Origin: an uncultured Syntrophorhabdus sp.
GTDB lineage: Bacteria; Desulfobacterota; BSN033; UBA1163
Length of the DNA: 38,157 bases
Direction: 5' to 3'
Assembly: GCA_964599175.1 (NCBI GenBank)
Contig: CAZREE010000003.1
Coordinates: forward strand, 1-38,157
Below, piece after piece: positions 3,801 through 38,157 of this stretch (the first letter of the stretch is position 1; the number at the start of each line of letters is the position of its first letter). Under the pieces are notes generated by a model. That model was not told the DNA's origin. It did no database searches and saw nothing but the letters and a program-made list of their open reading frames with translations. A program made the translations under genes and the position numbers.

Positions 3801-3803
3801 CGG

Positions 3804-4790
3804 TTAAATCCCTGATTCTCCCTCTGAAGAATTCGATTCTGATGAAACAGGCAGATCGGATGAGGTCGTGGGTTCTGAGGGAGCCCCGGCCGCGGCGGCA
3901 GGTTGAGGCTTTTCCCTTCGTTGTCTTGGACGCCAACGGGGTTTTTGGGGGGGGCGTTTCTTTTGAGATTTTCTCTCTAACAAAACCTCCCTCTCTTTCA
4001 ACTCTTTTAATTCTTCTATCTTCCCCTTTCCCTCCTCTTTCCCGAAACCGACGACCACATAGGTGCCGCTTCTGGCATCGGTCCGGAGATGAACGACCCC
4101 CTCTTTTTCGGCATCCTCCAGAAGGTCACTGAAGGTCCGGTAGCCGTGGTAGGACTCATTGAAGGAAGGTTTCTTTCGTTTGATGGTCTCTTTCACCATA
4201 GAGGACCAGAGAACTTCCTTGTTTTCGCGGACGAGGGCCACGACGGAATCGACCAGGAGTTGAAATGCCTCTCTTTTCTTCTCGGGCATATCCTTCTCAA
4301 TTTTTGGAGGCGTGCCGATCGATCTTTCCAGATCTTCGTAGTAGATAAATTCGTCGCAGTTATCGACCAAAAGGTTGGAGCTGGATTCTTTCATCCCCAA
4401 ACCGATGGCCCGCTTCCCGTTCTCCTTCAGTTTGGAGACGAGGGGGGAGAAGTCACTGTCGCCGGAGACGATGACAAAGGTGTCGATATGCTCCTTCGAA
4501 TAGCAGAGGTCAATGGCATCGACACAGAGCCGGATGTCCGCGGAATTCTTTCCGGTCATCGCCCGCTTCGGGATCTCGATCAATTCGATGGCCGCCTCGT
4601 GAAGGGGCTTCTTATACTCCGCATAATCGGCCCAATCGGCATAGGCCTTCTTGACGATGATCTTTCCCTTCTCGACCAGTCGTTCGAGGACCTTCTGAAT
4701 GTCGAAGCGCTTGTCCTTCTTCCCCCTGAATCCAAGGGCGAGGTTCTCAAAATCGATGAAGACCGCCAGGGTATGTTCAGCTTCAGCCAT
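3804..4790 (-). CDS. NYN (LabA/DUF88) nuclease-fold protein with C-terminal OST-HTH/LOTUS-like domain and basic Pro-rich tail
   Basis: ATG at 4788-4790 is preceded by AGGAGA. The NYN core is LAVFIDFENL...TGKNSADIRL...VIVSGDSDFSPLV. The OST-HTH-like part is FNESYHGYRTFSDLLEDAEKEGVV. The 427-aa ORF-track version adds 99 unsupported N-terminal codons. Confidence 0.75.
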   Translation of the reverse strand: MAEAEHTLAVFIDFENLALGFRGKKDKRFDIQKVLERLVEKGKIIVKKAYADWADYAEYKKPLHEAAIELIEIPKRAMTGKNSADIRLCVDAIDLCYSKEHIDTFVIVSGDSDFSPLVSKLKENGKRAIGLGMKESSSNLLVDNCDEFIYYEDLERSIGTPPKIEKDMPEKKREAFQLLVDSVVALVRENKEVLWSSMVKETIKRKKPSFNESYHGYRTFSDLLEDAEKEGVVHLRTDARSGTYVVVGFGKEEGKGKIEELKELKEREVLLERKSQKKRPPQKPRWRPRQRREKPQPAAAAGAPSEPTTSSDLPVSSESNSSEGESGI

Positions 4791-5090
4791 TGTCTCTCCT
4801 TTCTTATAAAACATCCTACAATCAAACGACGGATTTGTAAACCCCCTTATTTTACCAGCCGTGTATCGCTTCACTCTTCCGTAGTAAATTACTCGCAATC
4901 GCGTAGAACTGCCTGCTGGCAGCCATTGAGAGACCACGTGTGCACGGCATGAATAATTGCTTGCGTATGAAAGTCCCTTACAGGTCTTTATGACAGAAAG
5001 GGTTATCTGATTTAATCTCCTGCACTTTAGTCCAAATAGAGAGCTAAAAATTGAAAAGAAGCGAAAAAGTGTTGACAAAATTAACAATAT

Positions 5091-5337
5091 GGTGTTGATA
5101 TTTTCAACGCTTAAATTTGTTTATAATTTAAGCATTTAAGACGATTTTCACCTACAATAGTGTAGAAAAATTAAGCAAAATAAGATTAAATCCTTTAAAA
5201 ATAAAATATTAAAATATTCTTTTTTAGCTTCTAACATATTGTAATTACTTATAATTAAATTATTTATAAAAAAATATTTAAATTTTGGCTCGTTTCTTGA
5301 GAATAGAAATAAGTGAGAACATAAAAATTAAAGCCAA
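5091..5337. promoter_or_regulatory. very AT-rich divergent intergenic region (candidate promoter/operator region for the GcvH-like array and/or the NYN gene)
   Basis: Long A/T runs, visibly far more AT-rich than flanking genes. TTGACA at 5072-5077 is followed by TGnTGATAT-like at 5093-5101. Small inverted repeats: gcttaaatt/aatttaagc (5109-5133) and ctaca/tgtag (5152-5166). Confidence 0.35.
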
Positions 5338-5367
5338 ATGGAGCAAGAAGAAAGAGAGGTGAGCAAA

Positions 5368-5529
5368 ATGGTTATTATCTTAGTTGCCTTAACATTCATC
5401 GTAGCGATCCTTGCAAAGGTCATCATTCAGTTTCCGGCTCAAAAGAGAGTGAGCGCCAGAGTTGAGCCTGAGAGGGAGTGGATGGTCATTTCTCCGGTAG
5501 CAATGATGCCTAAGGGCATGAGAGCCTGA
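5368..5529 (+). CDS. small single-pass membrane protein, a truncated duplicate of the N-terminal anchor of the next gene
   Basis: ATG5368 is preceded by GAGAGG. The start MVIILVALTFIVAIL... aligns with MVVLLVGFTFIGAIL... of the 5558 gene at both protein and DNA level. May be a relic rather than functional. Confidence 0.4.
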   Translation: MVIILVALTFIVAILAKVIIQFPAQKRVSARVEPEREWMVISPVAMMPKGMRA

Positions 5530-8585: not shown

Positions 8586-11063
8586 TTGTTGGTGAAAGAG
8601 CTTCTACCCCTTGTCTCAAAACCAGTCAGGTATCTGGGCAGGGAGATCAATTCAATCAGAAAAGATCCCTCCGAAGTTAGGCTGAGATTGTGCCTCGCTT
8701 TCCCGGATGTCTATGAAGTGGGCATGTCCCACGTCGGAATTCAGATCCTCTATCATATCCTCAACGAAAGAAAAGAGATTGCGTGCGAAAGGGTCTTTGC
8801 TCCCTGGGTCGATATGGAGAAGGTCTTAAGGGAGAAGAGAATTTCCCTGTCCTCTCTTGAGTCGTCCACTCCTCTGGGTCAATTTGATATCCTCGGCTTT
8901 TCCCTCCAGTATGAACTCTGCTTCACCAATGTCCTCAACATGCTCGATCTCTCCGGAATCCCTCTCTTTTCAAAGGATCGCGACGAGCGATTTCCTCTCA
9001 TCATTGCCGGAGGCCCGACCGCCTTTAATCCGGAGCCCGTTGCCGATTTCTTCGATGCCATTGTGATCGGAGATGGTGAAGAGGCGGCGCCTGAGATCTG
9101 CGATGTCGTCCTCCAATGGAAAGAGTCTCATGGGAAAAAAGGCGATCTCTTAACCTCGCTCTCTAAGCTGAAAGGCGTCTATGTCCCAGGCTTTTCTTAT
9201 GGCCATAAGGTTGAAAAGAGGGTTGTTTCTGACCTCAACCTCGCCCCTTTTCCCACCTGCCCCATCATCCCGTTTATGAAGGTGGTTCACGACCGGCTTA
9301 ATGTGGAGGTCGCCCGGGGTTGCAAACGGGGTTGCCGTTTCTGCGAGGCAGGGTTTATCTACCGACCTTATCGGGAGAGAGAGCCGAACGGGATTCAGGA
9401 GATTCTCATTGCCGGATTGAAACAGACAGGCTACGAAGAGATCTCCCTGCTCTCTCTCAGCGCGGGAGACTATTCCTCCATCGGGCCCCTTCTTTCGAAT
9501 CTGATGGACCGGTTTGAGCCGAAGCGGGTGGCGGTCTCTTTTCCGTCATTGAGGATTGAGAGCATCGTCGGCCGTCTCGCAGGGGAAGTGAAACGGGTCC
9601 GCAAGACAGGGTTCACCATTGCTCCCGAGGCCGCAACGGAACGGCTCCGAAAAGTGATCAATAAAGAGTTGGACGAAACCGTTCTCTTTCAGGGAGTGAG
9701 AGAACTATTCTCCATGGGCTGGAAGAATCTGAAGCTTTACTATATGATCGGTCTTCCTACAGAAAGGGAAGAGGACGTCAGGGGCATCCTCGACCTCTCC
9801 AGGAGGATCTCATCTCAAGGAGAACGTCAGAGGATTCACCCCCAGATCAGCGTTAGCGTCTCCACCTTTGTGCCCAAACCCCATACCCCCTTTCAGTGGG
9901 AACCGCAACTTTCTCTCAACGAGATGAAAGAGAGACTCCAATTTTTAAAGGAGAATTTGAAGAAGAAAAACCTTCGTCTGAAGTGGCAGGATCCTCATCT
10001 CAGTCTCCTCGAGGGGGTCTTTTCAATGGGAGACCGAAATCTATCGAGAGTCCTGGTCGAGGCCCATCGGCTTGGATGCCGGTTCGATGGCTGGAGCGAC
10101 CAGTTCCGTTATGACCTCTGGGAAAAGGCATTTGAGAAGGCCGGGCTGGAGATGACCGCCTACACCCGGAAGAAGGGATTTGAAGAAACGCTTCCCTGGT
10201 CCTTTATTGAAACAGGAATCAGAACGGACTTTCTATGGAAGGAGTATCAGAAAGGATTGGAGGAAGAAGTCAGCCCTCCCTGCACGGCAAAGGAGTGCCG
10301 TCGCTGCGGCCTCTGTGACGGAAAGGATATCGCCGTAAGGGAAGGGCGTCCCATGGAACTCCCTCCCTTAACAAAAGGGGAGAGGAGTGAGATTCGAAGG
10401 AAGGGGCTCAGGACAAAATTCCGCTTAGCGTTTGTGAAAAGAGGGGAGATCCGGTTTGTCAGCCATCTCGAATTAGCGCACCTCTTCTACCGGTCCGCCA
10501 AGAGAGCCGGGCTTTCGCTTCACCACTCCGAGGGATTTCATCCAATGCCGAGGATCGTCTTCGAAAAGGCCCTTCCGGTGGGGGTGGAGAGTCTGAGGGA
10601 GATCGTTGACATCGAATTGGAGGGAAGACTCTCATCAACGGAACTGATGGAGAAGCTCAATCAGAGCCTTCCGGAGGGGATTGAAATCATTGAAGTCAGA
10701 GAAGTCCTGTTCCCGACGGCTTCTTCATCTCTTCCGCATCGGTCGGCCTACCGGATTTCACTGGATCATCTCCTCTCAAAAGGAGAGGCGCAATCGAGGC
10801 TGAAAAAGGCGATGGAGAAAGGAGAACTCTTCATCCTTCAGGAGAGGAAGGAGAAGGAGAGGAGGATCGATCTTCTGCCCCTGATCGAGAGGGTTGAAGT
10901 GAAGGAGGCAACGGGAGATCCGGATCAAGAGACCGGCCCTGTTTTAGAACTCGTTCTAAGAAGCTTCGAGGGAAAGACAGCCAAACCCCATGAGGCAGTC
11001 GGAGCCCTGTTGGGTCTACAGGGAGAAGCGCTTGCACAGTGCAGAATCATCAAGGTAGAATAA
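8586..11063 (+). CDS. B12-binding-domain radical SAM protein (TIGR03960-like) fused to a DUF2344/TIGR03936-like C-terminal domain
   Basis: 825-aa ORF with radical SAM motif VARGCKRGCRFCEAG (CxxxCxxC). The N-terminus LPLVSKPVRYLGREIN is typical of this family. The C-terminal third (FVKRGEIRFVSHLEL...) resembles the radical-SAM-associated domain. It lies directly upstream of rng, as in many genomes. Start is TTG8586 or GTG8592. Confidence 0.75.
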   Translation: MLVKELLPLVSKPVRYLGREINSIRKDPSEVRLRLCLAFPDVYEVGMSHVGIQILYHILNERKEIACERVFAPWVDMEKVLREKRISLSSLESSTPLGQFDILGFSLQYELCFTNVLNMLDLSGIPLFSKDRDERFPLIIAGGPTAFNPEPVADFFDAIVIGDGEEAAPEICDVVLQWKESHGKKGDLLTSLSKLKGVYVPGFSYGHKVEKRVVSDLNLAPFPTCPIIPFMKVVHDRLNVEVARGCKRGCRFCEAGFIYRPYREREPNGIQEILIAGLKQTGYEEISLLSLSAGDYSSIGPLLSNLMDRFEPKRVAVSFPSLRIESIVGRLAGEVKRVRKTGFTIAPEAATERLRKVINKELDETVLFQGVRELFSMGWKNLKLYYMIGLPTEREEDVRGILDLSRRISSQGERQRIHPQISVSVSTFVPKPHTPFQWEPQLSLNEMKERLQFLKENLKKKNLRLKWQDPHLSLLEGVFSMGDRNLSRVLVEAHRLGCRFDGWSDQFRYDLWEKAFEKAGLEMTAYTRKKGFEETLPWSFIETGIRTDFLWKEYQKGLEEEVSPPCTAKECRRCGLCDGKDIAVREGRPMELPPLTKGERSEIRRKGLRTKFRLAFVKRGEIRFVSHLELAHLFYRSAKRAGLSLHHSEGFHPMPRIVFEKALPVGVESLREIVDIELEGRLSSTELMEKLNQSLPEGIEIIEVREVLFPTASSSLPHRSAYRISLDHLLSKGEAQSRLKKAMEKGELFILQERKEKERRIDLLPLIERVEVKEATGDPDQETGPVLELVLRSFEGKTAKPHEAVGALLGLQGEALAQCRIIKVE

Positions 11064-11064
11064 A

Positions 11065-11217
11065 CCTAATAACCAAATTCCCTGCCTACCGGCCCCGGTC
11101 CCGCACTATTAATAGACCGAGGGCGGGGCAGGCAGGAATAATCAACATCCAAAATGAAAATATTGGAATTTGGTGATTGGTTATTATTTGGAGTTTGGGA
11201 TTTGGTTATTGGAATTT
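11065..11217. repeat. family-1 composite palindromic repeat, copy 1 (GC hairpin core plus ATTGG-rich arm)
   Basis: Core cctgcctaccggccccggtcccgcactattaatagaccgagggcggggcaggcagg (11081-11136) is nearly identical to 16961-17016. Flanks are aataaccaaat / atttggttattgg motifs. Confidence 0.8.
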
Positions 11218-16625: not shown

Positions 16626-16940
16626 ATGTTTGCCGTATTGAAAACAGGAGGAAAAGAGTATCGAGTCTCCACAGGAGATGTGATCCGAGTGGAGAAACTG
16701 GAAGGGAACGTGGGAGACCAGGTTACCCTGAAGGATGTTTTAATGGTCTCAAAAGAAGGGCAGGTCCAGGTAGGCACTCCCACCTTAAGCAATGCCGTCA
16801 TCACGGGTGAGATCGTGCGAGAGACGAAGGGTAAGAAGGTTCTTACCTATAAGATGAAAAAACGTAAGAATTACCGGCGGATGAAAGGGCATCGTCAGAC
16901 CTACACCTATCTGAAGGTGAATGAAATTTCAATAAGTTAA
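16626..16940 (+). CDS. rplU: 50S ribosomal protein L21
   Basis: MFAVLKTGGKEYRVSTGDVIRVEKL is a canonical L21 N-terminus. 104 aa. Confidence 0.95.
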   Translation: MFAVLKTGGKEYRVSTGDVIRVEKLEGNVGDQVTLKDVLMVSKEGQVQVGTPTLSNAVITGEIVRETKGKKVLTYKMKKRKNYRRMKGHRQTYTYLKVNEISIS

Positions 16941-16944
16941 TTAA

Positions 16945-17125
16945 GGGAATAACCAAATCCCCTGCCTACCGGTCCCGGTCCCGCAATATTAATAGACCGA
17001 AGGCGGGGCAGGCAGGCAAGCACCAATAACCCAATAATAACTAATGACTCAATGATCCACATTTATCTACTGAAATTTGGTTATTGGTGATTATTTGGAT
17101 CTTGGAATTTGGTTATTGGGATTTT
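16945..17125. repeat. family-1 composite palindromic repeat, copy 2 (GC core plus full CCAAT/ATTGG palindrome)
   Basis: Core 16961-17016 matches 11081-11136. It is followed by aagcaccaataacccaataataac ... aaatttggttattggtgattatttgg ... ggaatttggttattggg. Confidence 0.8.
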
Positions 17126-20852: not shown

Positions 20853-20857
20853 AAACG

Positions 20858-20980
20858 CCAATTTCCAAGCACCAATAACCAAATAATAACCAAATTACCA
20901 ATTACAAAAAAATGAGGATTGGTTATTGGATATTGAATCATTGGAATTTATTTGGGATTTGGTGATTCGGATTTGGAATC
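20858..20980. repeat. family-1 palindromic repeat, copy 3 (arms only, no GC core)
   Basis: aagcaccaataaccaaataataaccaaattaccaatt ... aggattggttattggatattgaatcattggaatttatttgggatttggtgattcggatttgg. The 5' block matches copies 2 and 4. Confidence 0.75.
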
Positions 20981-21004
20981 TCACTGGCAGGGATAAACCT
21001 AACC

Positions 21005-24761: not shown

Positions 24762-24782
24762 TTAGATAGAAAATAAAATCTC

Positions 24783-24832
24783 TAACCCCCCTTCATCCCC
24801 CCTTAAATTAAGGGGGGAATAGAGGGGGGTTA
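24783..24832. repeat. family-2 G/C-tract palindrome, copy A (possible terminator of comF)
   Basis: taacccccc ttcat cccccctt aaatt aagggggg aatag aggggggtta. Nested, near-perfect inverted repeat. Confidence 0.75.
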
Positions 24833-25058
24833 CGAATTTTCATGGTTCGAGGGCGCCCTCCGGGCATGGGGCATTAATTTAAATGACGTTTTCGGTTAGG
24901 GCTACGAAGCCAGTTTCGTCCCGTGGTCGGGTCTTATCGACATTCGGTAACGGGTTACGTTTAAAAGAATTAAACACGACAGAGGTAGCCTTTTATAGAC
25001 GATACGGGCATCGTTACCGTTGCCGTTAGACGAAGCACTTATCTTCTAAACAATCCAA

Positions 25059-28768: not shown

Positions 28769-30934
28769 ATGGCAAGCGTTATTGAGATGAAAGAGGAACG
28801 TAGAGATTTGAAAGTCGAAGACTCGACTCTACGAGAAGAGTTTGAAACGACAGATATGGCTCTTTTCGTTCGCACCTCTGAAGAGTCGATGAATGATTGG
28901 AACCGCCAGAGGATCGTCGACGCCCTTCTCAGAGAAACCTATATTGATGTCGATACGGCAAAAGAGATCGCCCGGGAAGTGGAGGATTTAATCGTCACTT
29001 CCAAGATCAAAATGATCACCGCACCTCTGGTCCGAGAACTGGTCGACACCAAATTGGTTGAAAGGGGACTGGAGCAGGCCCGCAAGATGCACACCCGGTT
29101 GGGTATGCCCCTTTATGATGTGGACCAGCTCATCCTTCATCCCAACAAAGAGAATGCCAATGTCCCTCACGGACCGGAGGCCACCAATCTTACCCTTGCG
29201 GAGAGGATTAAAAAAGAGTACGCCCTCCTCTCCGTCTTCTCGCAGGAGACGGCGGATGCTCATATGCGAGGGGATATCCATCTCCATGACCTCGGCTTTG
29301 TGGATCGGCCTTACTGCAGCGGGCAATCCCTCGAATACATCAAGCGATTCGGCCTGAGCCTTCCCAACTCCATTGCCATGGCCAAACCTGCCAAACATCC
29401 GGAGGTGCTCCTGGCGCATATGGTGAAGTTTGCCGCAGGCCTTCAGAGCAATTTTGCCGGAGCCATCGGATGGGACTCGGTCAATCTCTTCTTCGCTCCT
29501 TATCTGGTGGGAATGTCGGATCGGGAGATGGAACAATTAGCGCAGATGTTGATCTTCGAATTCTCTCAGCAGGCCGTTGCCCGCGGGGGTCAGGCGATCT
29601 TCACGGACATTAATCTCTACTGGGAGATTCCCAAGCATTTTGAAAATGTTCCTGCCATCGGTCCCGGGGGGGAGAAGACAGGAAAGAGGTACAGCGACTA
29701 CACAACGGAATCACAGCGTTTTGCATGGGCTCTCTTTAATGTCTTCATGGATGGAGACGGGTCCGGAAGGCCTTTCTTTTTTCCCAAACCGCTTGTCCAT
29801 ATCACGGAAAAATTCTTTCAGACCCCGGGTCATATGGATTTTCTTCACCACATCTGTGAGGTCGCTTCTGAAAAGGGCAACACTTATTTTGTTTTCGACC
29901 GCGGGGAGACGGCCAAAATCTCCGAATGCTGTCGCCTCAGCTTCAAGCTCGATCAGACCGACCTGGAGGATGCGAAGGAGCCCTGGAAGATGCGGTACTG
30001 CGCTCTGCAGAATGTCACGCTCAACCTTCCAAGGATCGCCTATCTGGCCAAAGAGGACGATACCCGACTCTTCTCCAAGCTGACGGAGTTTGTAGAGATT
30101 GCGGTCAGGGCGCATCTGGAGAAGAAAGTCTTCATTGAAAAGCTCCTCTCCCTTGGCGAACGGGGTCCCCTTGCCCTGTTAGCCATGAACCGGGACGGGT
30201 CTCCTTATCTGAGAATGCATCGGGCCAGTTTCCTCATCGGAATGGTCGGACTCAATGAACTCGTTCAGATCCATACCGGCCAGGAGATGCATCAGTCGAG
30301 GCATGCTTTTAAATTCGGATTGAAGGTGATCGCCCATATGAAACTGCTGGTCGATAAGTTGAGCGAACGCTATGGAATGCATTTCGTTCTCGAACAGACG
30401 CCCGCTGAATCGACCGCTTACCGTTTTGCCAAACTGGATCTCCGGTATCATTCCCCCCGATCAGGACATATCGTTAAGGGGGATATTTCTAAAGGAGAAA
30501 TCTATTATACGAATTCCACCTATCTGAATAACTCCGCGGTGCTCAATCCGATTGAAAGGGTCAGGCAGGAGGGGCTCTTTCATCCCCTGATTGAGGCCGG
30601 CGCATTGACCCATATCTGGCTGGGCGAGGCAAAGCCATCAAAAGAGTCTCTTGCCAATTTTGTGATCAAGACCTTCAGGCAGACCCAAAATGATCAGGTG
30701 GCCTTCTCGCCGGAGTTCACCACCTGCAATGCCTGCAATCGGACGAGTCGGGGGCTCCAGGCTTCCTGCTCCTACTGCGGATCGACAGAGGTGGATGGCA
30801 TCACCCGGATCACCGGCTACTTTACCAAACTCTCCAGCTGGAACAAGGGAAAGATCGGCGAGCTCCGAAACCGTTACCGGAATCAGGCCTACATCGAAGC
30901 CCAAGAAAAAGAAACCGCCCTGATGACCGGGTGA
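28769..30934 (+). CDS. nrdD: anaerobic ribonucleoside-triphosphate reductase (class III)
   Basis: AAGGTGA RBS. ATP-cone-like N-terminus (WNRQRIVDALLRE...), C-terminal Zn ribbon CNACN...CSYCGS, and glycyl-radical motif GITRITGYF. Confidence 0.9.
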   Translation: MASVIEMKEERRDLKVEDSTLREEFETTDMALFVRTSEESMNDWNRQRIVDALLRETYIDVDTAKEIAREVEDLIVTSKIKMITAPLVRELVDTKLVERGLEQARKMHTRLGMPLYDVDQLILHPNKENANVPHGPEATNLTLAERIKKEYALLSVFSQETADAHMRGDIHLHDLGFVDRPYCSGQSLEYIKRFGLSLPNSIAMAKPAKHPEVLLAHMVKFAAGLQSNFAGAIGWDSVNLFFAPYLVGMSDREMEQLAQMLIFEFSQQAVARGGQAIFTDINLYWEIPKHFENVPAIGPGGEKTGKRYSDYTTESQRFAWALFNVFMDGDGSGRPFFFPKPLVHITEKFFQTPGHMDFLHHICEVASEKGNTYFVFDRGETAKISECCRLSFKLDQTDLEDAKEPWKMRYCALQNVTLNLPRIAYLAKEDDTRLFSKLTEFVEIAVRAHLEKKVFIEKLLSLGERGPLALLAMNRDGSPYLRMHRASFLIGMVGLNELVQIHTGQEMHQSRHAFKFGLKVIAHMKLLVDKLSERYGMHFVLEQTPAESTAYRFAKLDLRYHSPRSGHIVKGDISKGEIYYTNSTYLNNSAVLNPIERVRQEGLFHPLIEAGALTHIWLGEAKPSKESLANFVIKTFRQTQNDQVAFSPEFTTCNACNRTSRGLQASCSYCGSTEVDGITRITGYFTKLSSWNKGKIGELRNRYRNQAYIEAQEKETALMTG

Positions 30935-31735: not shown

Positions 31736-32416
31736 ATGGTCGAAATCAAGGGATTCTTAGAAACTTCCTTTCTGGACTGGCCGGGGAAGATCTGTTCTGT
31801 CTTTTTTCTTCCCGGTTGCAACTTCTGCTGTCCGTACTGTCATAACCATTCACTGGTTTTCCATCCCGGGCAGTTTGCTTCGATATCGCTCAACGACATC
31901 TTCCGTCGCCTGGGACCCTTTAAAGGTTGGATCGATGGCGTCTGCCTCACGGGGGGCGAGCCCACTCTGCACGCCGATCTGCCTCTCTTGGTCCGTCAAA
32001 TTAAAGAAAGAGGGTTCCCGGTCAAACTCGATACCAATGGCTCCAACCCACAGATGCTTGAAACGCTCATCGATCAGGGAGAGGTTGATTTCATTGCGAT
32101 GGATGTGAAAGCGCCGCTGAATCCCTTCAGCTACCGGCGATCAACCGGTCTCACCATCGACCTCGGTCTCATCTCGAAGTCGATCGAAATTTTGAAGCGG
32201 GAAAAAGTGGAATATCAATTTCGGATGACCGTTGTTCCTCAACTCCATAGCGAAGAAGAGGTCCGGACCCTTGGCCGGCAGCTGAAGGCCGGCCGAAGAT
32301 TGACTCTCCAGAATTTCAACCCGGAAAATCCATTAGACCCCTCATTGAAGAACACTCCTCCTTACGACCCCAAAGTGTTGAAGGAAATGGAAAGAAGGGT
32401 GCAGGAAATGGTATGA
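31736..32416 (+). CDS. nrdG: anaerobic ribonucleoside-triphosphate reductase activating protein (radical SAM)
   Basis: IKGFLETSFLDWPGK...GCNFCCPYCHN (CxxxCxxC) and GVCLTGGEP. Length and motif pattern fit the NrdG activase family. No obvious SD. Confidence 0.8.
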   Translation: MVEIKGFLETSFLDWPGKICSVFFLPGCNFCCPYCHNHSLVFHPGQFASISLNDIFRRLGPFKGWIDGVCLTGGEPTLHADLPLLVRQIKERGFPVKLDTNGSNPQMLETLIDQGEVDFIAMDVKAPLNPFSYRRSTGLTIDLGLISKSIEILKREKVEYQFRMTVVPQLHSEEEVRTLGRQLKAGRRLTLQNFNPENPLDPSLKNTPPYDPKVLKEMERRVQEMV

Positions 32417-32472
32417 ACTTTAATTGCAAATTGGAAATTGGGCAGCACCTTAGCACTTTGAAAAAAAACATC

Positions 32473-32547
32473 TAATCCCCCTTCATCCCCCTTTTTCAAA
32501 AGGGGGAAGTATTTCTCCTCCCCTTGGCAAAGGGCGGGGAGGGATTT
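32473..32547. repeat. family-2 G/C-tract palindrome, copy B
   Basis: taatccccc ttcat ccccctttt..aaaaggggg ... ctcccc ttggcaaa gggcggggag ggatt. The first 20 nt match copy A (tctaaYccccc ttcatccccc). Confidence 0.65.
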
Positions 32548-32605
32548 TATGAAGTATTTTACAAACAGCTAAATTGATACAAAATTGCAAATTGGGAATC
32601 CGTTT

Positions 32606-33637
32606 ATGACTTCTCCTTCCCTTAAAGAGATCCGGACGAAGATCGATACGCTGGAGAAAGAGATCCAACTCCTGAGGCCCATCTTCGAGACGATCCGCGA
32701 TCCTTTCTTTCTTCTGAATTGCAAGAAAGAATTTTTAAAGGCCAACCCGAAAGGGGTGGATCTGTTGGGTTACGCTCCCGAGGAGATCGAACAGATGGTC
32801 TTCACCGATGTGTTGGCCCTCAACGACATCAGCGCCATGAGAGAAGGCTTCGACGAAATGGGAAAGGGGCGCGAAGTCTCTTTGACCCTCCATGTCGTTA
32901 ACCGGCTCAGAGAAGAAATTCCTGTGGTATGTTTTGGAACGCTACGAGAAGAAACCTACTTCATCACCCTGAGGGATTTAAGGGAGCGGATCCGTCTCGA
33001 GGAGGAATGGGAGAAGGCAAAGAGGCAGTTTATGGAAAAGCTCCGGGAGAGGGACCAATATGCCAGGGAACTGCAGGTGATGAGAGACCTCTTTAAGGAG
33101 AGAACCCGAGAGGTCGAGAAGATGAAAGAAGAGGCTGTCATGCTTTCTTACACGGACGACCTCACCGGAATCTATAATTATCGTTTTTTTATTCAACAAT
33201 TGACCCTGGAGGTGGAACGTCAAAAACGTTATTCTTCCTCTCTCTCCCTGCTCATGATCGACATCGACTATTTTAAACATTACAACGATCACAACGGACA
33301 TCTGGCAGGAGACGAGGCGTTGAAAGCCATAGCCGTTCTCATCCAGCACGGGGTCCGTCAGAGCGATATTGTCGCCCGCTATGGAGGCGAGGAGTTTGCC
33401 GCCATCCTGGTCAATGCAGGAAGGCAGAAGGCGATGGAGATTGCGGAGAGGGTGAGGCGGATCATTCAGGAGACCCCCTTTCCGAACGAAAAAGCACAAC
33501 CCAATGGAAACCTGACGGTGAGCCTTGGGGTGGCCACCTTTTCTTCTCCCATCGCCACGATCACGGATCTGATCCGCAAGGCGGACAACGCACTCTACCG
33601 GGCCAAGAGGGCAGGCCGCAATCGCGTTGAGGAATGA
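32606..33637 (+). CDS. PAS-like sensor, coiled coil, GGDEF diguanylate cyclase
   Basis: RYGGEEFAAIL active site with an upstream RQSD I-site (RxxD), DDLTGIYNYRFF, and DIDYFKHYND. Start is ATG32606 (the ORF track uses TTG32585). Confidence 0.85.
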   Translation: MTSPSLKEIRTKIDTLEKEIQLLRPIFETIRDPFFLLNCKKEFLKANPKGVDLLGYAPEEIEQMVFTDVLALNDISAMREGFDEMGKGREVSLTLHVVNRLREEIPVVCFGTLREETYFITLRDLRERIRLEEEWEKAKRQFMEKLRERDQYARELQVMRDLFKERTREVEKMKEEAVMLSYTDDLTGIYNYRFFIQQLTLEVERQKRYSSSLSLLMIDIDYFKHYNDHNGHLAGDEALKAIAVLIQHGVRQSDIVARYGGEEFAAILVNAGRQKAMEIAERVRRIIQETPFPNEKAQPNGNLTVSLGVATFSSPIATITDLIRKADNALYRAKRAGRNRVEE

Positions 33638-34040
33638 GTTGAAGACGATCCTCGTCACCGCAGGAGTGATCATTGAAAAAAAGAAGGCGCTGGTCGCTCA
33701 GAGAAAAAAACGGGCTCTCCGCGGCCTGCTCTGGGAGTTTCCAGGCGGAAAGGTCAAGGAGGGCGAGGATCCCAGAAGGGCCTTGCAAAGGGAACTGAAG
33801 GAGGAGCTTGATGTCGATGTGGAGGTGGAAAAAATCCTGGAAGCGGTCTTCCATACCTATCCCGAATATCCGATCCTTCTTCTCGCCTATCGCTGCCGCA
33901 TAAAAAGGGGGACTCCCAGACCCATGGGTTGTCATGACCTCCGATGGGTCTGCCTGGCGGAATTGAATAAATTGCCGATGCCCCCTGCGGATGAACCCAT
34001 CCGGATACGGTTGAATCGTCCCGGAGAAGGGCTACGCTAA
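33627..34040 (+). CDS. NUDIX hydrolase (MutT-like)
   Basis: Nudix box WEFPGGKVKEGEDPRRALQRELKEELDV. Start is TTG33627 or TTG33639, overlapping the cyclase stop. Confidence 0.8.
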   Translation: MRNELKTILVTAGVIIEKKKALVAQRKKRALRGLLWEFPGGKVKEGEDPRRALQRELKEELDVDVEVEKILEAVFHTYPEYPILLLAYRCRIKRGTPRPMGCHDLRWVCLAELNKLPMPPADEPIRIRLNRPGEGLR

Positions 34041-34174
34041 GGAGTTGGAGGGAACAGCTTCCTGTGGTCGGGTCTTATCGACAAACCGCTCCCTATAGAG
34101 CTTAGCCTCAAAACAATTCATTCCCTCTTGGAGAAATTTCAAGTTTGTTATAGAATCACTTTAGGAGTTGACCT

Positions 34175-35020
34175 ATGCCAAAAGAACCGATGCAGAGATA
34201 TGCTGAAAGTCTGGAAAAGACCATCCAGTACAACTTCAGTCAACTGAAGGAGATGGTGGAGGATTTTAAAGGGCTCTGTATGGTGGTCACGCCCGAGAAA
34301 CATACTCCTCAGGATATCATCACCGATATCCGAAAGCTTTACAAAGAGATTCGGGACCGCCTGACCGAAATCAAAGCCATTCAGCAAACCCTCCAGGGAA
34401 AATACAGGCAATATTATCGAAGGGATCCTCTGCGAGACAAGTCAATTGTTGAATTCGGGTTTCTGACCAAGAATCTCCTTTCAAAGTTTGAATATATCCT
34501 GCTTCAAAAGCAGGCTCTGGCACACAAGAGGGAAGAGGACATCGCCAAAGAGGAGCAGAAGGGCTTTCCCTATCAATGGTTTCACTCTAAAAACAATCAG
34601 GTCACCTTCATCAGAAATTTACGGATTTTGGGCGAGCTGGATTATGAAGTCCCTTTGGAGCAGGGTATGGATGAAAGACGAAAGGTCTCGCATGAGAAAG
34701 TCCGGCATCTGACCCTTTTCTGCCTCAGGGGAAGGCCCAGCCTCATCGATGAGGTTCTCTCCCGGCTCAGGTTGCGGGAACATGACATCATCGAGCGGTA
34801 TGCTCAGGATGAACTTCACGGATTGCTTGCCCATTTGAGGGAGGTGAATCCGGTGGAGTTAGAAAAAATTTTTCAACGGATTTTGGAGCATGAAGATGTT
34901 TCAAAACTCAAATGTCTTCTCATCCAGGTTCGTTCCCCAAAAGACCTCGAAGGCGATCAATTCAACACGATAAAAAAGACCCTCGGAGAAGTGGAAGATG
35001 GAAAGGTCAAAACGATTTAA
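34175..35020 (+). CDS. hypothetical protein (predicted helical, no recognisable domain)
   Basis: 281-aa ORF with AGGAG 8 nt upstream of the ATG. Charged, helix-rich composition. Confidence 0.5.
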   Translation: MPKEPMQRYAESLEKTIQYNFSQLKEMVEDFKGLCMVVTPEKHTPQDIITDIRKLYKEIRDRLTEIKAIQQTLQGKYRQYYRRDPLRDKSIVEFGFLTKNLLSKFEYILLQKQALAHKREEDIAKEEQKGFPYQWFHSKNNQVTFIRNLRILGELDYEVPLEQGMDERRKVSHEKVRHLTLFCLRGRPSLIDEVLSRLRLREHDIIERYAQDELHGLLAHLREVNPVELEKIFQRILEHEDVSKLKCLLIQVRSPKDLEGDQFNTIKKTLGEVEDGKVKTI

Positions 35021-35052: not shown

Positions 35053-35058
35053 AGGTTT

Positions 35059-35311
35059 GAAAAAGCCTTCATCGCCAGACATCAAGCGCTTGCCTTCGCC
35101 ACGCAGGGAATTCGGCAATTGAAGCTTCATTGTCTCACTCGGGGAGAAAAACCCTCACCTTCAGGCGAAGACTTGAGTATGCACACTGTGTGCATGTTTT
35201 CAGATTTTCCCTCGTGAGGATTTCTGTGCTTGTTGTTTCGTCTTCAGCTGACTTCAGTCAGTAGAGAATCCACCAGCTTGTAGCTGGCGGTAGTTCAATT
35301 CCAATAAGCCT
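35059..35311 (+). promoter_or_regulatory. long structured 5' leader (about 250 nt) of the Mg module; candidate riboregulator of unknown class
   Basis: Pairing cttcgcc (35094-35100) / ggcgaag (35164-35170). Hairpin atgcaca-ctg-tgtgcat (35179-35195) followed by GTTTTCAGATTTT. Competing pairing cctcac (35152-35157) / gtgagg (35213-35218). Hairpin ccaccagct-tgt-agctggcgg near the start codon. Confidence 0.35.
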
Positions 35312-36562
35312 ATGGACCAGAACCTCAGACAATTTTACTTCTTCAGCGATTTTTTGGACCGGAAAGTCTATTCGCCGTCCGGAAAGAAGATAGGCAAAAT
35401 CGCAGATCTGGTGGCGGAGAGGATAGAGCCCTATCCGATGATTCTCGGGATGGCGATTCAGACCAAGGGGAGAAAAAAGTTATTTCTTCCCTGGGAGAAG
35501 ATGCTTCAAGTCGAACCCCAAATCATCCTCTCCGAAGAAGACCTTCTTGATCTAACGGCCTTCCTCACCGCAGAGGACGCGGTCCTGCTTCGAGACGAGG
35601 TGATGGACAAACAGATCGTCGACACCTACGGAGCGAAGGTGGTAAGGGTCAACGACCTTCACTTCTTAAGGGTGGAGTCCCGGTTACGTCTGGTTCATGT
35701 GGATGTGGGGTTTCGGGGATTAATGAGAAGGGTGGGATGGGAGAGACCGGCTGACCGAGTCCTTGACTGGCTCTTCTCCTACAGGCTGCCCAATCAATTC
35801 ATCTCCTGGAAGTATGTTCAACTCCTCTCCGGTTCGGATCTGCTCCACCTCAGCGTCTCTCAGAAGAAGCTGTCTCATCTTCACCCTGCGGATTTAGCCG
35901 ATATCATCGAGGATTTAAGCGGTCGAGAACGCTCGGCCATCTTCCACGCCCTGGATCCTGAGACGGCCGCAGAGACCCTTGAGGAGATCGATCCGAAGAT
36001 TCAGAAGGCACTGATTGAAACCATCCCTCTGGAGAAAGCTTCGGATATTGTAGAAGAGATGTCGCCCAGCGATGCAGCCGATCTTCTGGGTGATCTTCCA
36101 GAAGAGAGGGCTGAAGAAATTCTGGAGAGGATGGAACAGGAGAAGGCCGAAGACGTGAGAGAGCTGCTCGTCCATCCCGACGAATCCGCCGGAGGGCTGA
36201 TGACCACGGCTTATCTCAGCCTGACGCCGGAGGTCACCGTGGAGGCCGCCATTTCGCGGTTAAAGGCGGAAGCTCCGAATCTGGACATCATTGATTACAT
36301 TTATGTGGTAGATGAGGAAGGGGCGCTTCAGGGCGTGATCAGCATTCGGGACCTCCTCACAGCCCAATCGCATCAACCGCTTTCCGAAATCCAGACTCCA
36401 AGGGTGGTAAGCGTTAAACTGGACGAAGATCAGAATGAGGTGGTCGATGCCTTCGCCAAGTATGGATTCAGAGCCCTGCCTGTCCTGGATGAAGAAAACC
36501 GTTTGAGAGGCGTGATCAGCTTTCGAAGCGTCCTCGATGTGCTGGCGCCGGATGCCGGATAA
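35312..36562 (+). CDS. soluble PRC-barrel x2, MgtE N-domain, CBS-pair protein (MgtE cytoplasmic sensor without the transmembrane pore)
   Basis: LHPADLADIIEDL...AAETLEEIDP...ASDIVEEMSPSDAADLLGDLP is the MgtE_N block. It is followed by two CBS motifs (GGLMTTAY..., ALPVLDEENRLRGVIS). The ORF ends right after CBS2, with no TM segment. N-terminal PRC-barrel-like repeats are KVYSPSGKKIGKIADLV and QIVDTYGAKVVRVNDL. Confidence 0.75.
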   Translation: MDQNLRQFYFFSDFLDRKVYSPSGKKIGKIADLVAERIEPYPMILGMAIQTKGRKKLFLPWEKMLQVEPQIILSEEDLLDLTAFLTAEDAVLLRDEVMDKQIVDTYGAKVVRVNDLHFLRVESRLRLVHVDVGFRGLMRRVGWERPADRVLDWLFSYRLPNQFISWKYVQLLSGSDLLHLSVSQKKLSHLHPADLADIIEDLSGRERSAIFHALDPETAAETLEEIDPKIQKALIETIPLEKASDIVEEMSPSDAADLLGDLPEERAEEILERMEQEKAEDVRELLVHPDESAGGLMTTAYLSLTPEVTVEAAISRLKAEAPNLDIIDYIYVVDEEGALQGVISIRDLLTAQSHQPLSEIQTPRVVSVKLDEDQNEVVDAFAKYGFRALPVLDEENRLRGVISFRSVLDVLAPDAG

Positions 36563-36569
36563 TCTTAAA

Positions 36570-36686
36570 CACCAATCACCAGGTACCAATAACCCAATAA
36601 TAACCCCTGCCTACCGGCAGGCAGGAATATCCAAATTCAAAATTCCAAACAACGTTTGATTATTGGGTATTGGATTATTGGAATTT
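36570..36686. repeat. family-1 composite palindromic repeat, copy 4 (collapsed GC core inside the arms)
   Basis: accaatcaccaggtaccaataacccaataataac + cctgcctaccggcaggcagg (36606-36625) + aatatccaaattcaaaattcc...ttgattattgggtattggattattggaattt. Confidence 0.8.
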
Positions 36687-36708
36687 GAAGCATTTTTTAG
36701 ACACAACC

Positions 36709-37965
36709 ATGCCTGAGTCTACTCAATGGTTTTCAAGCTCAAAGCGGTCCTTGTGGAGAACCGTCAGCCTCTTCTTCATTCTGATGGGGCCGGGCATCAT
36801 TACCTCCAACGTGGACAATGATGCCGGCGGGATCACCACTTACTCCTTAGCCGGTTCGCAATTTGGGCTGAAACTCATCTGGTCTTTGATTCCCATTATG
36901 ATTGTGCTGATCGTCGTCCAGGAGATGTGCGCCCGGATGGGAGTGGTGACGGGAAAGGGTCTTTCAGATCTGATCCGGGAAAAATTCGGCGCCAAGATTA
37001 CCTTCTATTTGATGATTGCCATGTTCCTGACCAACATGGGCAATGCCATCTCCAACTTCGCCGGGGTGGCGGCGGGGATGGAGATCTTTGGCGTCGATAA
37101 ATTCATCTCTGTTCCCATCAGCGCCTTTTTAGTCTGGTGGATGGTCGTCAAGGGGACCTATAAATCGGTTGAAAAGGCCTTTCTCATTGCATGCATCTTT
37201 TACATCTCTTACATCATCACAGGCATCATAGTAAAGCCGGACTGGGACCATGTGGTCGAACAATTTTTACACCCTCAATTGAGCCTTCAACCCTCTGAGA
37301 TGGCTATGGTGATCGGTCTTGTGGGAACCACGATCGCCCCCTGGATGCAGTTCTACCTTCAGGCCTCGATCGTTGAGAAGGGGATCAAGATAGAGGAATA
37401 TAAGTTTGCACGGTTCGATGTGGTCATGGGATCGGTCGTTGTCCACATCGTCGCTTTCTTTATCATCCTGGTCTGTGCGGAGACCCTCTTCAAGCATGGG
37501 ATTCAAATCGAAACAGCGAAGGACGCGGCTCTTTCCCTTAAGCCTCTGGCCGGAAAATATTGCACTTATCTCTTTGCCTTCGGGTTGGTCAATGCCTCCC
37601 TCTTTGCGGCCTCAATCCTTCCCCTCTCCACGACCTATCTCATCTGTGAAGGCCTGGGTTGGGAAGTGGGGATTGATAAAAAGTTTATAGAAGCCCCTCA
37701 ATTCTACGGGATCTACTCCCTCATCATCTTTCTGGGGGCGGGCATCATCCTCTACCCGGACCTCCCGCTCATTCCCATCATGTACTTCTCACAAGTCGTC
37801 AACGGGATCGTGCTCCCCTTCATCCTCATCTTCATTCTTCTACTCATCAATGATAAAAAATTAATGATGCAGCATACCAATGGCCCTATCTTTAATGTCA
37901 TCGCCTGGGCAACCACGGTCATCCTGATCGTCCTTACCCTCGTGCTCTTCATCCAGATGATTTAA
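36709..37965 (+). CDS. Nramp-family transporter with NRMT-type (Nramp-related magnesium transporter) binding-site substitutions
   Basis: TM1 motif VDNDAGGITT replaces DPGN. TM6 motif GTTIAPWMQFYLQ replaces GA.IMPHNL. Multiple TM helices. ATG36709 is preferred because TTG36670 lies inside the repeat. Confidence 0.75.
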   Translation: MPESTQWFSSSKRSLWRTVSLFFILMGPGIITSNVDNDAGGITTYSLAGSQFGLKLIWSLIPIMIVLIVVQEMCARMGVVTGKGLSDLIREKFGAKITFYLMIAMFLTNMGNAISNFAGVAAGMEIFGVDKFISVPISAFLVWWMVVKGTYKSVEKAFLIACIFYISYIITGIIVKPDWDHVVEQFLHPQLSLQPSEMAMVIGLVGTTIAPWMQFYLQASIVEKGIKIEEYKFARFDVVMGSVVVHIVAFFIILVCAETLFKHGIQIETAKDAALSLKPLAGKYCTYLFAFGLVNASLFAASILPLSTTYLICEGLGWEVGIDKKFIEAPQFYGIYSLIIFLGAGIILYPDLPLIPIMYFSQVVNGIVLPFILIFILLLINDKKLMMQHTNGPIFNVIAWATTVILIVLTLVLFIQMI

Positions 37966-38057
37966 TTGCAATAGGAAATACCAAAGTAAAAACTTAGCCT
38001 TTTCAAATACTTAGATATAGGACACTTCCTGGGAAAGGTCTCCTGTTAGACTATTTC

Positions 38058-38157
38058 TAATCCCCTTCCCACCTCTATTCCCACATTAAGTTAAGGGGGG
38101 ATGTCCGCTTAAAGCGGATCCGCCTCAGGCGGAAAGGGGGGTTATGAGCCTTTTTTT
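38058..38157 (+). terminator. family-2 G/C-tract palindrome, copy C (inverted orientation, with an insertion), followed by a T-run; probable terminator
   Basis: taatcccc...ctctattccc..ttaaggggggatg...gaaaggggggtta resembles the reverse complement of copy A. It contains inner hairpins tccgctt/aagcgga and tccgcc/ggcgga. It ends with gagccttttttt at the window edge. Confidence 0.45.

Follow-up and report, generated by a model that had tools for sequence, protein, structure and literature searches.

A pore-less MgtE-type sensor gene paired with an NRMT-clade transporter gene: conservation of the pair and a possible brake acting in trans

Which transporter does a cytoplasmic sensor of the MgtE type serve when its gene stops short of the channel pore and is followed by a gene for a structurally unrelated transporter? 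This question is raised by two adjacent genes on contig CAZREE010000003.1 of an uncultured Syntrophorhabdus sp. (assembly GCA_964599175.1), of which the whole stretch from position 1 to 38,157, hereafter the window, was analyzed. Gene 1 encodes a soluble accessory protein (the "sensor") that resembles the regulatory part of MgtE, and gene 2 encodes a transporter of the NRMT clade of the Nramp family. We found that the pairing of these genes is strongly conserved, in fixed order, across phyla and distant bacterial lineages, and that the linkage is tight and ancient. The pairing as such was already published in 2014, and the locus is an nrmT-type two-gene operon that is ordinary as a discovery. 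A preliminary description of the window, made from the letters alone, had known of no experimental account of such a pair; this was mistaken, as Shin et al. (2014, PLoS Genet 10:e1004429, PMC4072509) reported the pairing and co-expressed one pair. As to what the accessory protein does, we favour the reading that the sensor responds to cytoplasmic Mg2+ and/or adenine nucleotide and would restrain an uncoupled NRMT, driven by the membrane potential, through direct contact; we give this reading a probability of roughly 0.45.

The conservation of the pair was followed from both sides. Starting from the sensor, we compared 49 orthologous genome loci (53-93% identity) in metagenome-assembled genomes of Thermodesulfobacteriota/Syntrophaceae, and in all 45 loci with enough downstream sequence (45/45) the next gene was an NRMT gene. 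The same arrangement was found among distant pore-less relatives with 33-43% identity and unrelated gene neighbourhoods, where an Nramp gene with an NDAGG-type motif lies directly downstream in 5/5 cases, the stop and start codons often overlapping. Starting from the transporter, a metagenome scan gave 80 NRMT loci at 52-93% identity, 74 of them informative and 6 uninformative. A sensor gene was present within 3 kb in 72/74 informative loci and stood directly upstream on the same strand in 67/74 (52 complete, 15 cut by a contig end); in three loci the upstream sensor is more than 500 nucleotides (nt) away, and in two others (L118 and L125) it is convergent and lies downstream of the transporter. 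A gene-sized gap of 1.2-1.5 kb separates sensor and transporter in L126 and L142. Among the 70 loci with a same-strand upstream sensor, 18 show a gap of 10 nt or less or an overlap, which suggests translational coupling; an overlap of 4 nt is frequent in relatives. The pair is also found next to a 92%-identical relative of EleNRMT, the crystallised NRMT of Eggerthella lenta, where a 450-residue PRC-MgtE_N-CBS gene ends 3 nt before the transporter start; the two genes of this Eggerthellaceae locus (L148) lie at 2645-3997 and 4001-5416.

On its sequence, gene 2 is assigned to the NRMT clade of SLC11/Nramp transporters by fold, metal-site residues and closeness to EleNRMT. Its product matches the Pfam Nramp family (PF01566) over profile positions 1-356 of 357 (E 1.1e-102) and EleNRMT (7qia/7qic/7qji/7qjj) over the whole length; the match to 7qia reaches E 8e-110 and 371 bits, against E 2e-25 and 93 bits for the best canonical MntH, and the score for the MntH family of NCBIfam stays under the cutoff (136 vs 430 bits). 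The motifs NDAGG and GTTIAPW are identical to those of EleNRMT, with D/G and T/A replacing D/N and A/M. NRMTs are defined by these D/G and T/A residues (PMC8806188, from which the EleNRMT residue numbers are also taken). NDAGG is invariant in seven diverse NRMTs, and the motif of transmembrane helix 6 (TM6) is kept in the neighbours of distant sensors. The open reading frame (ORF) of gene 2 was listed as 36670-37965 with a TTG start; homology in relatives begins at its residues 11-14, so that the start is likely the ATG at 36709. EleNRMT is a characterised Mg2+/Mn2+ transporter without proton coupling (PMC8806188). Uncoupled Mg2+ transport is known only for EleNRMT and is a prediction for the gene 2 product.

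In the product of gene 1, an N-terminal part with PRC barrels precedes an MgtE N domain, which is followed by a CBS pair. A Pfam scan placed a PRC domain at residues 8-68 (30.2 bits vs a cutoff of 21.2), MgtE_N at residues 190-291 (E 7e-29) and two CBS domains reaching residue 412, and did not find the MgtE pore family PF01769 in this protein. Likewise, the NCBIfam equivalog TIGR00400 (mgtE) is covered only over profile positions 23-253 of 450, with 177 bits and thus under the 233-bit cutoff. The best solved-structure match is the cytosolic domain of Thermus thermophilus MgtE (TtMgtE; 2yvy/2yvx, E 1e-40), with an alignment spanning TtMgtE residues 23 to ~256; the ORF ends at the point where the plug helix would follow. 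As judged from the sequence, gene 1 is not classed as an MgtE channel, because both the plug helix and the five-helix transmembrane pore are lacking. It also differs from the channel (2yvx/2zy9) in its additional N-terminal tandem PRC barrel. An AlphaFold model based on 150 family sequences reached a predicted local distance difference test score (pLDDT) of 92.3 and a predicted template modelling score of 0.76, and its C-terminal half superposes on the Mg2+-bound TtMgtE cytosolic domain 2yvy with a root-mean-square deviation of 1.6 A and a template modelling (TM) score of 0.87.

The second PRC repeat (residues 89-178) is invisible to BLASTP, which gave no match for an internal repeat in gene 1. 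A profile-profile comparison of residues 1-88 with residues 89-178 by hhalign yielded a probability of 86.5% (E 4.6e-6), and a separate AlphaFold model of residues 1-182 (pLDDT 91.3) found its best Foldseek match in the tandem PRC-barrel protein CdpB1/CdpB2 of archaea (8qzo, E 3.5e-6), covering both barrels over 134-142 columns; the next matches were single PRC barrels, including those of reaction-centre H subunits. The N-terminus is thus modelled as two PRC-barrel folds. With 17-20% identity, and as CdpB1/CdpB2 have no MgtE or CBS module, this likeness is one of fold only. The preliminary description had read gene 1 as two PRC-barrel-like repeats, an MgtE N domain and a CBS pair without the pore, and the next gene as an Nramp-fold transporter with NRMT-type substitutions; these assignments stand, as does the pairing, the co-occurrence of which it had proposed as a check.

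Could gene 1 nevertheless be the recent, truncated remnant of an mgtE gene without a function of its own? That it ends exactly at the boundary between cytosolic domain and pore would fit such an origin, and a crude tree of the sensor family suggests about three gains or losses of the pore. Against this, a family search of 1.84 billion cluster representatives returned 12,489 matches, and most of the best 150, which were taken as representatives, are 405-460 residues long and align end to end with gene 1 at 33-60% identity. About 130 pore-less clusters (at the 50% identity level) share its length and architecture, and the ORF is intact in all 49 orthologous genomes. When the sensor is compared with six orthologues, the ratio of nonsynonymous to synonymous substitution rates (dN/dS) lies at 0.03-0.07 and equals that of the transporter; gene 1 is under purifying selection, as is gene 2. 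(One value of 1.24 for the NRMT gene against locus L003 was set aside as an artefact of tblastn coordinates taken from a gapped alignment.) Furthermore, the pore parts at the C-terminus of 17 pore-bearing relatives, when compared with the window and the 49 orthologous loci (L001-L049), revealed nothing beyond noise at E<=10. The low dN/dS, the absence of pore remnants and the large family of homologues rule out a pseudogene or truncated mgtE, and the reading as a functionless remnant is refuted with next to no residual probability. For the preliminary description, a recent pseudogene fragment (marked, for example, by transmembrane-coding remnants downstream) or a pairing confined to this locus would have spoken against its reading, and neither was found.

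Within this family, the tandem PRC barrel is a constant feature. Both barrels are present in every complete sensor gene examined, including 52/52 full-length sensors of the NRMT-centred sample, and the single-domain profile PF05239 matches 40/49 family members. Across the 130 pore-less representatives, PRC barrel 2 is the best-conserved region of the protein, with residues D99, Q101, D104, G107, R112, V113, N114, D115, D131, G136, R139, R140 and W166 kept in at least 90%. Two shorter proteins, P0233 (336 residues) and P0250 (331 residues), start at query residue ~93-96 and have PRC barrel 2 without PRC barrel 1; these are perhaps naturally occurring variants, or else genes that were called too short.

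A smaller group of relatives carries the same module fused to a channel. Such PRC-PRC-N-CBS proteins with an MgtE pore (PF01769) and a length of ~600 residues or more make up 18/150 representatives. These PRC-MgtE forms, e.g. P0166 (genome CP070648.1), share the PRC-PRC-N-CBS module with gene 1 at 35-42% identity, keep the pore, unlike gene 1, and are missing from a 2025 classification of MgtE architectures (preprint, bioRxiv 10.1101/2025.05.26.656215). In three of four cases checked (L062/L063, L144 and L145) an NRMT gene comes next, and the fourth (L146/L147) is without an Nramp gene. The existence of these forms, together with the finding that MgtE proteins consisting of the transmembrane part only are common in genomes (same preprint), would allow the sensor to be the detached half of a split MgtE, serving a transmembrane-only pore encoded elsewhere, with adjacency to the NRMT gene reflecting merely the co-regulation of two Mg2+ routes. 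We consider this very unlikely: the plug helix, by which the cytosolic domain of MgtE is coupled to its pore, is missing from the sensor, no MgtE pore sequence was found in the window or loci L001-L049, and in none of the 80 NRMT-centred loci (0/80) does a sensor ORF reach the pore columns of the family profile. The tight and often overlapping linkage is to the NRMT gene.

Next, we considered which signal the sensor might read, with Mg2+ sites numbered after Maruyama et al. 2018. Two carboxylate positions of TtMgtE are kept in gene 1, namely E59 of Mg7 (E221) and D95 of Mg6 (D257). At Mg4 and Mg5, two interdomain sites of MgtE, the carboxylates are lost in part or entirely: D91 and D247 of Mg4 correspond to S253 and S406, and D226 of Mg5 corresponds to G385. 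Across the family, D95 of Mg6 is retained in 127/130 representatives, the D/D pair D91/D247 of Mg4 in 116/150, and E59 of Mg7 in 104/130 (either E or D). Most residues of the ATP site are also common to MgtE and gene 1 (TtMgtE Y170, R187, D188 and F227 as Y329, R346, D347 and F386); throughout the family, most members have retained Tyr and Arg, F227 is mostly Leu (73/130) and N203 is not conserved. An M-box (RF00380), which is an Mg2+ riboswitch, lies directly upstream of a sensor or PRC-MgtE gene in 2/20 related loci (L095 at 1399-1571 and L145 at 831-1041; 134 and 115 bits), and no M-box was found in close relatives of the window. In locus L095, the NRMT gene is moreover closely followed by a 6S RNA (4411-4590).

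The retained ATP contacts and the loss of Mg4 and part of Mg5 in the window's clade would fit a sensor that regulates the NRMT in response to adenine nucleotide or energy state (ATP, ADP, AMP or Mg-ATP in the CBS pair) and not to free Mg2+, all the more as CBS pairs are general adenosine-ligand sensors, to which the Foldseek neighbours also point. We regard a purely nucleotide signal as unlikely, given that the carboxylates of Mg4, Mg6 and Mg7 are kept in most family members, that F227 and N203 of the ATP site are not, and that M-box riboswitches occur in related operons. It is the M-boxes and the family-wide carboxylate retention that support a link of the sensor to Mg2+.

How does the locus compare with what was described in 2014? 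Shin et al. reported that most NrmT genes adjoin a homologue of the MgtE cytoplasmic domain, speculated that the adjacent gene serves in cytoplasmic feedback regulation or as a metal chaperone, and found many nrmT operons under M-box control (PMC4072509). Their operons (C. acetobutylicum Ca_c0685; Acidobacterium capsulatum Acp2976/Acp2977) contain the same two genes in the same order as the window, and gene 1 is such a homologue beside an NrmT gene on the same strand. The M-box, which is frequent in the nrmT family and not obligatory, is lacking in the window as well as in the A. capsulatum pair. The chaperone idea can be put more broadly: instead of acting as a gate, the sensor may be a metal chaperone or buffer, or may tune the selectivity or stability of the transporter. 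The translated N domain of gene 1 is rich in acidic residues, and the A. capsulatum transporter is mainly an Mn2+ importer despite its accessory gene (PMC4072509), both of which would suit such a role. However, the fold of gene 1 superposes on the closed, Mg2+-bound regulatory domain of MgtE, whose sensing sites are millimolar and not of the high-affinity chaperone type (PMC5882242), and Pfam and NCBIfam scans did not find metal-chaperone motifs; we therefore hold a chaperone or selectivity role to be quite unlikely.

In the reading that we favour, the accessory protein would probably form a CBS-mediated dimer in the manner of MgtE. It would read cytoplasmic Mg2+ by opening and closing of its N domain and CBS domains, and probably also adenine nucleotide via the kept ATP-site residues. 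The state of the sensor would then be passed to the transporter by direct contact, and uptake would be shut when the cell is Mg2+ replete. The preliminary description had likewise proposed that the sensor gates or regulates the transporter, an idea that in substance is the feedback regulation of Shin et al. (2014). A transporter powered by the membrane potential only needs a brake of this kind, just like the channels MgtE and CorA; the absence of proton coupling in EleNRMT points to such a need. For docking onto the transporter we propose the tandem PRC barrel, since the plug helix is absent, PRC barrels occur in every complete sensor examined and PRC barrel 2 is the best-conserved region; of all parts, its conserved surface is the likeliest to make the contact. 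As a lead only, PRC barrels are protein-interaction modules, and in the reaction-centre H subunit the PRC barrel rests on the core of a membrane protein.

Several observations weigh against this reading. Mg2+ sensing via the MgtE sites is only partly supported for the protein of the window, because of the losses at Mg4 and Mg5 and because the Mg2 and Mg3 residues (E258, D259) belong to the plug helix, which the sensor lacks. At Mg4, all orthologues (47/47) combine S253 with either S or N at position 406, and Mg5 D226 is replaced by G385 in the window's clade. At two NRMT loci, L130 and L138 (3 kb flank), no sensor was found within 3 kb. In the literature searched, no interaction between the sensor and an NRMT was found reported. 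Moreover, equal expression of both genes is not assured across the 146-nt spacer with its stable hairpin. Three published results also belong here, but are neutral rather than contrary, because no gain in rescue is to be expected from a brake: co-expression of Acp2976 and Acp2977 of A. capsulatum in a B. subtilis Mg2+-transport mutant left rescue unchanged, the C. acetobutylicum NrmT alone rescues an Mg2+-transport mutant (both PMC4072509), and EleNRMT transports alone in proteoliposomes, without need of a partner (PMC8806188). In MgtE itself, the loss of gating in deltaN and ATP-site mutants was exposed by assays of Mg2+ overload and Co2+/Ni2+ hypersensitivity (PMC5529423), whereas rescue by itself would leave a brake unseen.

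The proposed contact through the PRC barrels can be taken one step further. The tandem PRC barrel may be a dedicated adaptor by which an MgtE-type Mg2+/nucleotide sensor docks on and gates a LeuT-fold SLC11 transporter in trans. In the PRC-MgtE forms, a single sensor would then govern two unrelated routes of Mg2+ entry encoded in one operon, and the pore-less protein would be the remainder after the channel half was lost. This extension is tentative and, on balance, rather doubtful. If true, a regulatory domain would have outlived its own channel through re-use on a different transporter.

Consequences would follow also for the understanding of NRMTs in general. NRMTs represent the fourth class of bacterial Mg2+ importers, and structural and functional work has used the transporter alone. 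For example, EleNRMT was studied without a partner (Ramanadane et al. 2022, eLife 11:e74589); the terms "operon" and "genomic context" are absent from that paper, and its five mentions of MgtE refer to the channel. Yet a partner gene lies beside nearly every NRMT gene sampled, that of the close relative of EleNRMT included. If the sensor is a brake in trans, current descriptions of NRMTs miss the regulatory half, and the sensing module of MgtE is transferable to an unrelated transporter fold. In the literature searched, we found no paper later than Shin et al. (2014) that addresses the partner gene. Beyond that paper, which mentions neither PRC barrels nor CBS domains, the present analysis adds the tandem PRC barrel in every complete sensor examined, the pore-bearing forms beside NRMT genes, and the loss of the Mg4 and half of the Mg5 carboxylates in the window's clade. 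The PRC barrels and the pore-bearing intermediates make the question of regulation raised in 2014 easier to test.

Table 1 Features of the gene pair and its upstream region in the window.
Feature	Position	Strand	Basis
Sigma-70-type promoter, TTGACA, 17 nt spacer, TATAAA	35024..35052	+	read from sequence
5' leader, long (~260 nt), non-conserved, no recognisable riboswitch	35053..35311	+	Rfam, fold, orthologue comparison
Gene 1, accessory ("sensor") gene: tandem PRC barrel, MgtE N domain and CBS pair; 416 residues, soluble	35312..36562	+	Pfam, NCBIfam, PDB matches
PRC barrel 1, residues 1-88	35312..35575	+	Pfam PF05239 E 4.6e-7, over gathering score; model beta-rich, confident
PRC barrel 2 with two-helix insert, residues 89-178	35576..35845	+	hhalign, Foldseek
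MgtE N domain, residues ~185-291	35864..36184	+	PF03448 E 7e-29; aligns from TtMgtE residue 23
CBS pair, residues 292-416	36185..36559	+	PF00571 x2; TtMgtE alignment; end at plug helix start position
Intergenic spacer, 146 nt, with dispersed palindromic repeat copy 36566-36690	36563..36708	+	hairpin CCTGCC-TACC-GGCAGG
Gene 2, NRMT-clade Nramp transporter, 418 residues from ATG at 36709; longest ORF from TTG at 36670	36709..37965	+	PF01566, 7qia match
TM1 metal-site motif N-D-A-G-G; D38 and G41 correspond to EleNRMT D55 and G58	36817..36831	+	7qia alignment
TM6 metal-site motif G-T-T-I-A-P-W; T207 and A210 correspond to EleNRMT T224 and A227	37324..37344	+	7qia alignment

With respect to expression, co-transcription of gene 1 and gene 2 is likely, as read from the sequence, because both genes lie on the same strand, a promoter is present only before gene 1, the 146-nt spacer showed neither a promoter-like site nor a terminator-like site on the plus strand, and the genes often overlap in relatives. 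The putative promoter adjoins the stop of the upstream gene. Both of its hexamers and much of its spacer are invariant in the window and seven orthologous loci, and the remaining leader is not conserved; the promoter scan tool had skipped this site, as it demands a T at position 6 of the -10 hexamer. An M-box or other riboswitch in the 290-nt leader region before gene 1 was ruled out: the Rfam search gave no match at the gathering score or E<=5, the fold is not significant (z-score -1.62), and the leader varies in sequence and in length, the spacer upstream of the sensor ranging from 27 to 445 nt among orthologues. Matches of the window to snoRNA and miRNA families of Rfam were far below the gathering scores and are due to chance.

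The fold of the intergenic spacer has a z-score of -2.75, and its hairpin could affect mRNA stability. As an operon-specific attenuator the hairpin was rejected, since it is one copy of a dispersed repeat that recurs at three further intergenic positions of the window as well as in leaders of relatives. This first repeat family, imperfectly palindromic and resembling repetitive extragenic palindromic (REP) elements or miniature inverted-repeat transposable elements, is intergenic throughout (11059-11217, 16939-17124, 20853-20981 and 36566-36690); arms of the CCAATAACC type flank a CCTGCCTACCGG...GGCAGGCAGG hairpin, and similar sequence is present in the 5' leaders of four orthologous loci (L001, L003, L004 and L010). 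A second family consists of C6/G6 hairpins (CCCCCCTTAAATTAAGGGGGG-like) just past gene ends at 24771-24839, 32461-32511 and, after the NRMT gene, 38053-38103. They could serve as terminators or represent a further REP-like element; a scan of the window for terminators did not flag them.

A box of 24 nt, TCC(C/T)GTGGTCGGGTCTTATCGACA, occurs twice in the window (24919-24942 and 34060-34083; 96% identical, with dissimilar flanks), each copy ~90-115 nt upstream of one of two unrelated genes, a YhdP/AsmA-like gene at 25059 and a gene for a 281-residue protein at 34175, and may represent a shared operator or promoter element. The latter gene (34175-35020) lies directly upstream of the sensor in 42/44 loci L001-L044 (43-81% identity), the other two being without upstream sequence, and its product matched no Pfam or NCBIfam family. 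It was ruled out as a member of the system, since its synteny is confined to the window's clade and it is absent from L045-L049 and the distant loci. Further upstream, the window encodes an anaerobic ribonucleotide reductase NrdD and a radical-SAM activase-like protein (28769-30934 and 31736-32416), a GGDEF diguanylate cyclase (32585-33637) and a NUDIX hydrolase (33627-34040), a set of neighbours that fits an anaerobe. The order GGDEF, NUDIX, the 281-residue protein, sensor and NRMT is syntenic in most orthologous loci.

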